This document shows, in pieces, positions 2,920-53,699 of a stretch of DNA of 64,000 bases; the first letter of the stretch is position 1; each line of letters opens with the position of its first letter. Origin of the DNA: Escherichia coli (GTDB lineage: Bacteria; Pseudomonadota; Gammaproteobacteria; Enterobacterales; Enterobacteriaceae); NCBI RefSeq assembly GCF_002854065.1, contig NZ_CP024147.1. One strand, written 5' to 3'. The translations under genes and the position numbers were made by a program. The notes beneath the pieces are model-generated. The model had not been told where the DNA came from. It ran no database searches and was given only the letters and a program-made list of their open reading frames with translations.

Positions 2920-3359
2920 CCCCGGCCTTCAGGGAACGCCTCGGCGATTTTGACGCCACCAACATCCGTGCGGTTTGTAACGTCGAAGATAAAACAACCA
3001 GGGCAGATAAAATGCCAATGCTAATTAATTACGTTTTTCCAGCAGGGTCCGGTAAATCAGACCACCGATAATGCCGCCGACAATTGGCACCACCCAGAAG
3101 AACCACAGTTGTTCTAATGCCCAGCCGCCCTGGAAGATGGCAACCGCGGTGCTGCGCGCCGGGTTAACAGAAGTGTTAGTCACCGGAATACTGATTAAGT
3201 GAATCAGGGTTAAGGCCAGACCAATAGCGATCGGCGCAAAACCTGCCGGAGCGAATTTGTCGGTTGCGCCGTGGATCACCAACAGGAAACCTGCACTCAA
3301 TACCAGTTCAACTACCAGCGCGGAAAGCATGGAATAACCGCCTGGTGAATGCTCGCCAT

Positions 3360-3368
3360 AACCGTTAG
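3360..3368. repeat. IS1 target-site duplication (left copy, AACCGTTAG)
   Basis: A 9-bp direct repeat AACCGTTAG immediately flanks both IS1 ends (3360..3368 and 4137..4145). Confidence 0.85.
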
Positions 3369-3423
3369 GGTGATGCTGCCAACTTACTGATTTAGTGTAT
3401 GATGGTGTTTTTGAGGTGCTCCA

Positions 3424-3699
3424 GTGGCTTCTGTTTCTATCAGCTGTCCCTCCTGTTCAGCTACTGACGGGGTGGTGCGTAACGGCAAAAGCACTGCCGG
3501 ACATCAGCGCTATCTCTGCTCTCACTGCCGTAAAACATGGCAACTGCAGTTCACTTACACCGCTTCTCAACCCGGTACGCACCAGAAAATCATTGATATG
3601 GCCATGAATGGCGTTGGATGCCGGGCAACCGCCCGCATTATGGGCGTTGGCCTCAACACGATTTTCCGCCATTTAAAAAACTCAGGCCGCAGTCGGTAA
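3424..3699 (+). CDS. insA: IS1 InsA (transposition inhibitor / N-terminal part of InsAB')
   Basis: 91-aa [46 protein letters not shown]... matches canonical IS1 InsA. Confidence 0.95.
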
Positions 3700-4121
3700 C
3701 CTCGCGCATACAGCCGGGCAGTGACGTCATCGTCTGCGCGGAAATGGACGAACAGTGGGGATACGTCGGGGCTAAATCGAGCCAGCGCTGGCTGTTTTAC
3801 GCGTATGACAGGCTCCGGAAGACGGTTGTTGCGCACGTATTCGGTGAACGCACTATGGCGACGCTGGGGCGTCTTATGAGCCTGCTGTCACCCTTTGACG
3901 TGGTGATATGGATGACGGATGGCTGGCCGCTGTATGAATCCCGCCTGAAGGGAAAGCTGCACGTAATCAGCAAGCGATATACGCAGCGAATTGAGCGGCA
4001 TAACCTGAATCTGAGGCAGCACCTGGCACGGCTGGGACGGAAGTCGCTGTCGTTCTCAAAATCGGTGGAGCTGCATGACAAAGTCATCGGGCATTATCTG
4101 AACATAAAACACTATCAATAA
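3618..4121 (+). CDS. insB: IS1 InsB reading frame (expressed as InsAB' transposase by -1 frameshift)
   Basis: 167-aa frame ...[64 protein letters not shown]... matches IS1 InsB; it overlaps the insA 3' end in the -1 frame. Confidence 0.9.
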
Positions 4122-4136
4122 GTTGGAGTCATTACC

Positions 4137-4145
4137 AACCGTTAG
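4137..4145. repeat. IS1 target-site duplication (right copy, AACCGTTAG)
   Basis: Identical 9 bp to 3360..3368. Confidence 0.85.
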
Positions 4146-4922
4146 AAGCAAAACCGCTGGCTGCCGCGTCAAAACCCGTTTTACCACTGGCAATTAAATA
4201 CAGCAGCGCCGCTGCAACAATACCGCCGACAACCTGGGCAATTACGTAGCCAACGACTTCTTTTGCCGGAAAACGTCCGCCAGCCCATAAACCAATAGTG
4301 ACCGCCGGGTTAAAATGACCACCAGAAATATGACCAACAGCGAAGGCCATCGTCAGAACGGTCAAACCGAATGCCAGCGCCACGCCGGCAAAACCAATGC
4401 CTAATTCCGGGAAGCCTGCGGCCAGTACAGCACTACCACAGCCACCAAAAACAAGCCAGAAAGTACCAAAACATTCAGCTGCTAATTTTCTGAACATATC
4501 CACCTCAATTAAAAATTGACCCTGTGAAAAATATGGTCGTTTTATAGGGTCGTCGTAAAAAAGTGACGACGGAAATAATGCGCGGCTATTTTAAAAACGA
4601 AGGCGAGTCATTCACCAGATAAATAAATCCAGTAAATTTGATTTAGGGCAACAGCGGGTTGCCCCATATAGTCATTTGTCTGATTGACAGTGTAGTGCAA
4701 GCAAAAGATTTAATCCTTTAGGCGTAATAAAAAATAATTTATCATGCTAATTATTTGATTTTGTTGTTTTTGCAGACTTATCAGCAAGAGGGAGTATAAC
4801 GCGATTATTCGCTCATTTTTCAGACATTTGCCATGCTTAAATGTGATGTCATCACGTATTAGCAAGGCCTTTCCCGTTATACTGCCAGCGTAAAGGATAA
4901 GTCACATATTTCTGGAGGGGAT

Positions 4923-14290: not shown

Positions 14291-14333
14291 CGAAAAAAAA
14301 GCTCGCACTTTCGTACGAGCTCTTCTTTAAATA

Positions 14334-14421
14334 TGGCGGTGAGGGGGGGATTCGAACCCCCGATACGTTGCCGTATACACACTTTCCAGGCGTGCTCCTT
14401 CAGCCACTCGGACACCTCACC
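14334..14421 (-). tRNA. serW: tRNA-Ser (GGA anticodon)
   Basis: Minus-strand sequence GGTGAGGTGTCCGAGTGGCTGAAGGAGCACGCCTGGAAAGTGTGTATACGGCAACGTATCGGGGGTTCGAATCCCCCCCTCACCGCCA: 88 nt, long variable arm, encoded CCA. Confidence 0.92.
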
Positions 14422-50921: not shown

Positions 50922-51206
50922 ATGACCAAGTCAGAATTGATAGAAAGACTTGCCACCCAGCAATCGCACATTCCCGCCAAGACGGTTGAAGATGCAGTAA
51001 AAGAGATGCTGGAGCATATGGCCTCGACTCTTGCGCAGGGCGAGCGTATTGAAATCCGCGGTTTCGGCAGTTTCTCTTTGCACTACCGCGCACCACGTAC
51101 CGGACGTAATCCGAAGACTGGCGATAAAGTAGAACTGGAAGGAAAATACGTTCCTCACTTTAAACCTGGTAAAGAACTGCGCGATCGCGCCAATATTTAC
51201 GGTTAA
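50922..51206 (+). CDS. ihfB: integration host factor beta subunit
   Basis: 94 aa, [94 protein letters not shown]. Confidence 0.97.
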
Positions 51207-51232
51207 GTTTTTACTCAAACTTGAACGCGAGA

Positions 51233-51258
51233 AAAGCACCTGTCGGGTGCTTTTTTCA
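51233..51258 (+). terminator. ihfB rho-independent terminator
   Basis: AAGCACC-TGTC-GGGTGCTT followed by TTTTTCATTT. Confidence 0.75.
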
Positions 51259-51412
51259 TTTCTCTAATCTGGAACTGGAAGCTGCCTCGCAGAGTTTTGA
51301 GCAGTTTTCACCCTCTCGTTAAATTCTTCTGAATGTGCCTCGGGGAACGCAAAATTCCCACCAGACAACCGCTCAACAAAGTTGCACACTTTCCATAAAC
51401 AGGGAGGGGTGC

Positions 51413-53663
51413 ATGAAAATAACGACAGTCGGCGTATGCATAATTTGCGGAATTTTTCCGTTGCTGATTTTGCCCCAATTGCCTGGGACATTAACCCTTG
51501 CGTCTCTGACCGTCTTCGCCTGCGTACTGGTATTTATCCCTTTTAAAACCGTCCGTTATATCGCGCTGACGTTGCTGTTTTTCGTTTGGGGCATATTAGC
51601 AGCAAAGCAAATTTTGTGGGCAGGAGAAACCTTAACTGGCGCGACGCAGGATGCAATTGTTGAGATCACTGCTACTGACGGTATGACCACTCATTACGGT
51701 CAAATTACTCATCTACAAGGTCGACGTATATTCCCTGCGCCAGGCCTCGTGCTGTATGGCGAATATCTTCCGCAAGCGGTTTGTGCTGGACAACAATGGT
51801 CAATGAAACTCAAAGTTCGTGCCGTTCATGGTCAACTTAATGATGGCGGCTTTGATAGCCAGCGTTATGCCATTGCCCAGCATCAGCCGCTCACCGGCCG
51901 TTTTCTGCGGGCAAGTGTCATTGAACCGAATTGTAGCCTGCGTGCACAGTATCTGGCGTCACTACAAACAACGCTGCAACCCTATATGTCTTGGTTTAGG
52001 TATGGGGGAACGGTTATCCGTCCCTAAAGAAATCAAAAATATCATGCGTGATACTGGAACGGCGCATTTAATGGCGATATCGGGATTGCACATCGCTTTT
52101 GCGGCGTTGCTGGCTGCCGGACTCATTCGCAGTGGACAAATTTTTCTGCCTGGGCGCTGGATCCACTGGCAAATGCCATTAATTGGCGGAATCTGCTGTG
52201 CTGCTTTTTATGCCTGGCTGACGGGAATGCAACCTCCTGCATTGCGTACCGTTGTGGCGCTTGCTACGTGGGGAATGCTTAAGTTAAGTGGGCGACAGTG
52301 GAGTGGCTGGGATGTATGGATATGTTGTCTGGCGGCAATTTTGCTGATGGATCCTGTTGCCATTCTCTCGCAAAGTTTATGGCTCTCTGCCGCTGCGGTC
52401 GCGGCATTGATATTTTGGTATCAGTGGTTTCCCTGTCCTGAGTGGCAACTGCCGCCGGTATTGCGTGCAGTTGTTTCCCTCATTCATTTGCAACTGGGAA
52501 TCACACTTCTGCTTATGCCCGTGCAAATCGTCATATTTCATGGCATTAGTCTGACCTCGTTTATTGCAAATCTATTAGCAATTCCCTTGGTGACATTTAT
52601 CACGGTTCCGTTGATCCTCGCCGCGATGGTTGTGCATTTAAGCGGGCCGTTAATCCTGGAGCAAGGGTTATGGTTTCTTGCCGACCGGTCTTTGGCTTTA
52701 CTTTTCTGGGGGTTAAAGAGTTTGCCAGAAGGGTGGATCAACATTGCTGAACGTTGGCAATGGCTATTATTTTCCCCATGGTTCTTACTGGTGGTATGGC
52801 GATTAAACGCCTGGCGAACGTTGCCAGCAATGTGTGTGGCTGTAGGCTTGCTGATGTGCTGGCCGCTGTGGCAAAAACCTCGACCTGACGAGTGGCAAGT
52901 GTACATGCTTGATGTCGGGCAAGGGCTGGCAATGGTGATAGCCAGAAACGGCAAAGCGATTCTCTATGACACGGGACTGGCCTGGCCCGAAGGGGATAGT
53001 GGGCAACAACTGATTATCCCCTGGCTCCACTGGCATAATCTTGAACCGGAAGGCGTTATTCTGAGCCATGAACATCTGGATCACCGGGGAGGGCTGGATT
53101 CAATATTGCACACATGGCCGATGTTATGGATCAGAAGTCCGTTAAACTGGGAACATCATCAGCCCTGTGTGCGTGGCGAAGCGTGGCAATGGCAAGGATT
53201 GCGTTTCAGTGCGCACTGGCCTTTACAAGGTAGCAACGATAAAGGAAATAACCATTCCTGTGTGGTTAAGGTTGATGACGGGACGAATAGCATTCTTCTA
53301 ACCGGTGATATTGAAGCCCCAGCTGAACAAAAGATGCTAAGCCGTTACTGGCAGCAAGTGCAGGCAACATTGCTTCAGGTACCTCACCATGGCAGTAATA
53401 CCTCATCATCGTTGCCATTAATTCAGCGAGTGAATGGAAAAGTGGCATTCGCATCGGCATCGCGCTATAACGCATGGCGACTGCCCTCTAACAAAGTTAA
53501 GCATCGCTATCAACAGCAAGGTTATACGTGGCTTGATACTCCTCATCAGGGGCAAGTAACGGTCGATTTTTCAGCGCAAGGCTGGCGGATTAGCAGCCTC
53601 AGGGAGCAAATTTTACCTCGTTGGTATCATCAGTGGTTTGGCGTGCCAGTGGATAACAGGTAG
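51413..53663 (+). pseudogene. ycaI: ComEC/Rec2-family competence protein homolog, apparently frameshifted near 51985
   Basis: Two overlapping frames: 51413..52027 (MKITTVGVCIICGIF..., RBS AGGGAGGGG) and 51819..53663 (...LGLGMGERLSVPKEIKNIMRDTGTAHLMAISGLHIAF... with C-terminal metallo-beta-lactamase HEHLDHRGG). Total span is 2251 nt, not a multiple of 3. Confidence 0.6.
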
Positions 53664-53699
53664 AATATGCGGCTATTTCAACAAATGCTGGTTTTTTGA

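Follow-up and report, generated by a model that had tools for sequence, protein, structure and literature searches.

A 14-bp deletion divides the ComEC-family gene ycaI in a small clade of Escherichia coli

We consider it highly probable that the split ycaI gene described here reflects a genuine 14-bp deletion, which had one origin within a small clade of E. coli, has been inherited by its members and most likely entails loss of function. The window, by which we mean the whole stretch of 64,000 nucleotides of contig NZ_CP024147.1 that was analysed, presents the standard synteny around this gene (cmk-rpsA-ihfB-ycaI-msbA-lpxK-ycaQ), with the arrangement ihfB - ycaI - msbA - lpxK conserved. At this position, where nearly all other complete E. 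coli genomes have an intact gene, the window carries a disrupted ortholog of the ComEC/Rec2 family rather than an intact member. The features of the locus and its surroundings are collected in Table 1.

Table 1. Features in and around the ycaI locus, in window coordinates
Feature	Position	Strand	Details
ihfB	50922..51206		ORF list; annotated in relatives
Terminator-like hairpin and T-run 3' of ihfB	51229..51257	+	13-pair stem, then T-run
Shine-Dalgarno sequence of ycaI, GGGAGGGG	51402..51409	+	sequence; duplex with 16S rRNA 3' end, -11.6 kcal/mol
ycaI N-terminal fragment	51413..52027	+	ATG 51413, TAA 52025-52027, 204 aa
Second-frame ORF, mechanically called	51819..53663	+	ORF list
Out-of-frame leader of the second ORF, not native ycaI frame	51819..51989	+	
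Deletion junction	51988..51989	+	14 bp missing, codons 193-197 (WNAVI) minus one base
ycaI remainder, native frame	51990..53663	+	557 codons and stop
HEHLDH (HxHxDH) metal-binding motif, beta-lactamase-like domain	53067..53084	+	
Sigma-70 promoter-like site at ycaI 3' end	53638..53666	+	TTGGCG, 17-nt spacer, TAGAAT; consensus match only

The ycaI locus (51413..53663) measures 2251 nt, or 750 x 3 + 1, and intact ycaI measures 2265 nt. A preliminary description of this DNA had pointed to a length not divisible by three, to an ORF that opens behind a strong ribosome-binding site and ends at 52027, and to the continuation of the protein, including a C-terminal HxHxDH motif, in another frame; each of these observations holds, the motif being HEHLDH. 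The N-terminal fragment consists of 192 native codons followed by 12 out-of-frame codons (SWFRYGGTVIRP) and the TAA stop. Hence, the reading frame of about 754 aa, which is continuous in the intact gene, is divided in the window by the 14-bp deletion.

Alignment to the intact alleles of O157:H7 TR01, GDSC2227PM and K-12 MG1655 reveals that 14 bp, TGGAATGCGGTTAT, are absent between 51988 and 51989, and this one gap is the only lesion relative to all three. The junction in the window reads ...CCCTATATG/TCTTGG..., with the slash marking the missing bases. When TGGAATGCGGTTAT is put back, one ORF of 754 codons without an internal stop is obtained, and the split is therefore not a chance pattern of ORFs. 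The preliminary description had assigned the change of frame to the interval 51983..51992, had estimated the loss at about 14 bp and had put the intact product at about 754 aa. The junction lies within that interval, alignments to the intact alleles give exactly 14 bp, and the stated product length is borne out by these alleles as well as by the restored ORF. Pairwise alignment to K-12 ycaI (b0913), proposed at the time as a check, locates the 14-nt indel at this junction and shows 49 mismatches in 2251 aligned bases; the gap is drawn there as 7 + 7 because K-12 has CCG (Pro192) where the window has ATG (Met192). The deleted bases form neither a homopolymer nor a tandem repeat. We also considered slippage between direct repeats as the origin of the deletion, which is rejected because the flanking microhomology in the intact allele amounts to 1 nt (T), and no repeat-mediated mechanism is evident for the same reason.

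The K-12 protein (WP_000705764.1) is encoded at the same locus between ihfB and msbA and has the same order of domains (DUF4131, Competence, Lactamase_B). The two genes are 97.8% identical in nucleotide sequence over aligned columns, and the restored protein of the window differs from that of K-12 at 24 of 754 residues. However, K-12 ycaI is a single ORF of 754 aa, whereas the window allele, lacking 14 nt at codons 193-197, occupies two frames. As a separate observation, the 5′ third of the window gene (51504-51909) holds, within about 400 nt, 14 of the 24 differences between the whole gene and that of GDSC2227PM and is closer to the O157 type, a pattern which suggests that ycaI is a recombination mosaic.

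The distribution of the deletion was examined by a megablast search with 51413..53663 against 5,426 complete E. coli genomes, in 5,425 of which the gene was found. Intact ycaI of 2265 nt, annotated as 'ycaI: ComEC family protein', is present in essentially all of them. A 2251-nt match at 99% identity or more (99.9%) occurs in only two genomes, which come from independent projects: CUWW06 (NZ_CP182139.1), from wastewater in Thailand, and strain 100416 (NZ_CM128593.1), from human stool in the Gambia. A survey of other strains, likewise suggested beforehand, has thus recovered the same allele, since both genomes carry the same 14-bp deletion, encode the same 204-aa product (WP_375156536.1) and have flanks nearly identical to those of the window. 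CUWW06 differs from the window by 10 SNPs in 64 kb and strain 100416 by 15 in about 50 kb, the flanks being approximately 100% identical. Because so few SNPs separate them, the window, CUWW06 and strain 100416 can be regarded as one clade, and the simplest account of their shared deletion is common descent. GDSC2227PM, the genome next in similarity, matches both flanks at 99.9% identity, and its ycaI is intact, with exactly TGGAATGCGGTTAT in place, which positions the deletion event on a recent branch. As is expected of a lineage-specific pseudogene, the frame is disrupted in comparison with an intact close relative and the lesion is reproduced in independent assemblies.

The break falls where the N-terminal DUF4131 region gives way to the Competence channel domain. 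Residues 27-157 of the N-terminal fragment align to DUF4131 (PF13567; Pfam) with 26.6 bits against a gathering score of 31.6. With 20.5 bits, the intact protein of O157 likewise stays under this gathering score, and the sub-threshold value is therefore a property of the E. coli family and not of the window allele. Downstream of the junction, the integral-membrane channel region represented by Competence (PF03772) is recognized at residues 4-271 of the C-terminal part (E = 9.6e-54, 183 bits, cutoff 23), and Lactamase_B at residues 308-487 of the native-frame C-terminal part (E = 1.1e-23, 84.6 bits). The NCBIfam model PRK11539, which has 758 positions and a cutoff of 969 bits, is passed by 51990..53660 by itself (positions 204-757, 1013.9 bits), and the N-terminal fragment matches positions 3-198, such that only five deleted residues are lost from the coverage of the model between the two fragments; the intact sister allele of GDSC2227PM scores 1311.3 bits. 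Both fragments also match TIGR00361 (ComEC_Rec2), the equivalog model for the ComEC/Rec2 channel through which naturally competent bacteria internalize DNA; at a cutoff of 190 bits, the intact sister allele reaches 1103. The window gene differs from the ComEC/Rec2 genes of competent bacteria in that its ORF is interrupted and, moreover, in that a DNA-uptake phenotype is not firmly established for E. coli YcaI according to the pertinent passages of PMC6135910.

We propose that the 14-bp chromosomal deletion goes back to a single event in the ancestor of a small E. coli clade, whose members have inherited it. The deletion shifts the frame past codon 192, and translation from the native start therefore gives the 204-aa stub ending at 52027, leaving the Competence channel and the metallo-beta-lactamase nuclease-like domains without their native start. 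Loss of YcaI would presumably be tolerated at no cost to fitness, ycaI being dispensable in E. coli. YcaI function has most likely been lost in the carriers, and the allele would be a young pseudogene.

A different outcome is conceivable in which the gene is split and functional, the stub and a separately started C-terminal protein (for example, through reinitiation at ATG 52002 or 52044) together or singly retaining ComEC-like activity. In favor of this outcome, the break is positioned at the junction of DUF4131 and Competence, and the downstream 557 codons with their Competence and metallo-beta-lactamase domains, including HEHLDH, are undamaged in sequence. The 204-aa stub keeps the hydrophobic N-terminus and the DUF4131 region. 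In-frame ATG codons 3′ of the deletion occur at 52002 (intact residue 202, at the start of the Competence domain), at 52044 (residue 216), which is 17 nt past the stop of the first ORF, and at 52071, and there are candidates at most 25 nt from that stop. Furthermore, RefSeq/PGAP lists the broken gene as two coding sequences, 'hypothetical protein' and 'ComEC family protein', and not as a frameshifted pseudogene. However, the Shine-Dalgarno duplexes predicted for the three ATG codons (-2.2, -0.6 and -3.9 kcal/mol, respectively) are far weaker than that of the native start, and none of these in-frame candidates offers a convincing restart for the C-terminal part. The msbA start is likewise weak (-2.2 kcal/mol), and Shine-Dalgarno strength is by itself not decisive. 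PGAP starts the C-terminal coding sequence at GTG 51942 in CUWW06 and at GTG 51915 in strain 100416, giving products of 573 versus 582 aa from starts that both lie in out-of-frame sequence, and this disagreement between carriers indicates that the C-terminal part has no obvious start. Such a product would also be deprived of the hydrophobic segment found ahead of it at the N-terminus of intact YcaI, and the single-ORF form is kept by more than 5,400 genomes. Finally, carriers are separated by only 10-15 SNPs per 50-64 kb, and in so young an allele an intact downstream sequence does not count in favor of function. We therefore regard a functional split gene as unlikely, and it is quite unlikely, too, that a 204-aa piece and a reinitiated Competence/beta-lactamase piece assemble in trans as a naturally split ComEC. 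If this were true, the allele would offer a natural test of how far the domains of the DNA-uptake channel can work as separate modules.

The preliminary description had posed the alternatives of an inactivated homolog and a sequence error. A sequencing or assembly error, in which ycaI is in truth intact in the strain and the 14 bases disappeared only in silico, would gain some credit from the two private SNPs that the window carries in this gene, at 52768 and 53658. These correspond to two nonsynonymous C-terminal changes, S457L and G754R in restored numbering, that are found in neither CUWW06 nor strain 100416, and the private 573-aa C-terminal product of the window (WP_434057604.1) is recorded on one contig. 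Nevertheless, an artefact is very unlikely as the cause of the split, because the identical deletion is present in two more complete genomes from independent projects and because the lost bases, which comprise no homopolymer or tandem repeat, do not correspond to a typical platform error. In addition, public assemblies encode precisely this 204-aa truncated product on 162 contigs (258 index blocks; NCBI, ENA, Logan and IMG), under names such as 'MULTISPECIES: hypothetical protein [Escherichia]' and 'Competence-related protein ... E. coli 1-250-04_S3_C1'. Of the two alternatives, error can thus be set aside and the allele taken as real, and we infer its inactivation.

SNPs are weakly enriched in ycaI within the three-member clade, where 3 of 20 fall in the gene (binomial p = 0.03), all three being nonsynonymous, and among the SNPs private to the window, where 2 of 5 do so (p = 0.012) in comparison with the rest of the 64 kb; in so young a clade, a clear signal is not to be expected. 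Outside ycaI, however, the coding SNPs of the clade are also mostly nonsynonymous (10 nonsynonymous, 4 synonymous, with 3 further SNPs non-coding), and the enrichment is therefore uninformative on relaxed constraint. An excess of nonsynonymous SNPs of this kind outside ycaI is typical for very recent divergence, or might contain some residual assembly error.

Programmed recoding, in which ribosomal frameshifting or bypassing would yield a full-length protein from two overlapping frames, has nothing beyond the existence of those frames to recommend it and is effectively refuted, since the deletion relative to a near-universal single-frame allele fully accounts for the change of frame, no slippery heptamer is seen in the junction sequence, and the sister strain GDSC2227PM lacks the deletion and has the 14 bases.

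The sequences that flank ycaI bear on the expression of its neighbors. A strong terminator-like hairpin follows ihfB, and ycaI would consequently need a promoter of its own within 51258..51412. At the other end of the gene, the sigma-70 promoter-like site lies 34 nt upstream of the msbA ATG (53700) and is the single match in the region, where shuffled sequences contain a mean of 3.4. This site is a possible independent promoter of the essential msbA-lpxK genes, and such a promoter would be consistent with expression of msbA-lpxK that does not depend on translation through ycaI.

Other variation is evident in the window and its relatives. The aquaporin gene at the position of aqpZ is cut by an IS1B-family element (approximately 3025-4497, with the IS1 transposase at approximately 3424-4121); we assign this insertion to the window because its alignment to CUWW06, which is annotated in this way, is gapless. 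CUWW06 has an extra IS1 in ycaM, at window positions 36123-36131, that is absent from the window, and the 9-nt overlap of the two alignment pieces there would fit a target-site duplication. The alignment of strain 100416 to the window stops at about 14327, beside a tRNA-Ser gene (approximately 14327-14421), where this strain has an island. Its gene block includes a CbtA/YeeU toxin-antitoxin system, antirestriction, dynamin-family and patatin-like phospholipase genes, and IS elements. CUWW06 is contiguous with the window at tRNA-Ser, and both are without this block. Between ycaM and pflA (window approximately 37225-37335), close relatives annotate only a remnant of 111 nt, which in CUWW06 is labeled as a 'LysR family transcriptional regulator, missing N-terminus' pseudogene. 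K-12 has ycaN and ycaK in this interval, and it seems that a deletion between ycaM and pflA has occurred in the window lineage.

Disruption of ycaI extends to other E. coli. Of 60 records taken at even intervals along the match ranking, 55 show the 2265-nt span. The five exceptions are one of the carriers itself, an IS1 insertion in ycaI (NZ_CP092452.1), two spans of 2264 nt (NZ_CP024228.1 and NZ_CP087287.1) that could be real frameshifts or assembly errors, and a split match (NZ_CP027459.1). The protein cluster to which the N-terminal stub belongs also contains frameshift products of other allelic backgrounds that diverge near codon 164, along with products ending at residues 149, 184 and 192, which may reflect premature stops or truncation by contig ends. 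These broken alleles affect the same gene with the same presumed outcome as in the window. Because the lesions, their positions and their allelic backgrounds are different, they represent independent events, and ycaI disruption therefore recurs in E. coli at low frequency. Among the truncated proteins, three unrelated ones (P0003, P0009 and P0013) diverge just past '...PLTG(R)' at a run of four T residues, CGTTTTCTG, near window positions 51900-51906. This T4 run, close to codon 164, may be a small hot spot for frameshifts or a site of recurrent sequencing error.

The available literature is in accord with a tolerated loss. Passages of PMC6135910 report that the role proposed for the uptake machinery in the use of DNA as a nutrient was not reproduced in three independent laboratories, and from the ycaI literature as it is represented there, with citation of Sun et al. 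2009, the loss of ycaI is expected to be tolerated. The text of Sinha & Redfield 2012 contains none of the terms 'rec2', 'comEC' and 'inner membrane'.

The split ycaI is most likely an ordinary strain-specific pseudogene of a known and dispensable gene, both product fragments of which are already present in public databases. One practical consequence concerns annotation, as PGAP records the halves as two proteins with inconsistent starts instead of as a pseudogene. In addition, the clade might be recognized simply by its 14-bp junction. The ComEC homolog has most likely been lost from a small clade of E. coli with Asian and African samples, a finding that carries little weight beyond the annotation of these strains, but that adds to the evidence that ycaI is dispensable and is repeatedly disrupted in E. 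coli.
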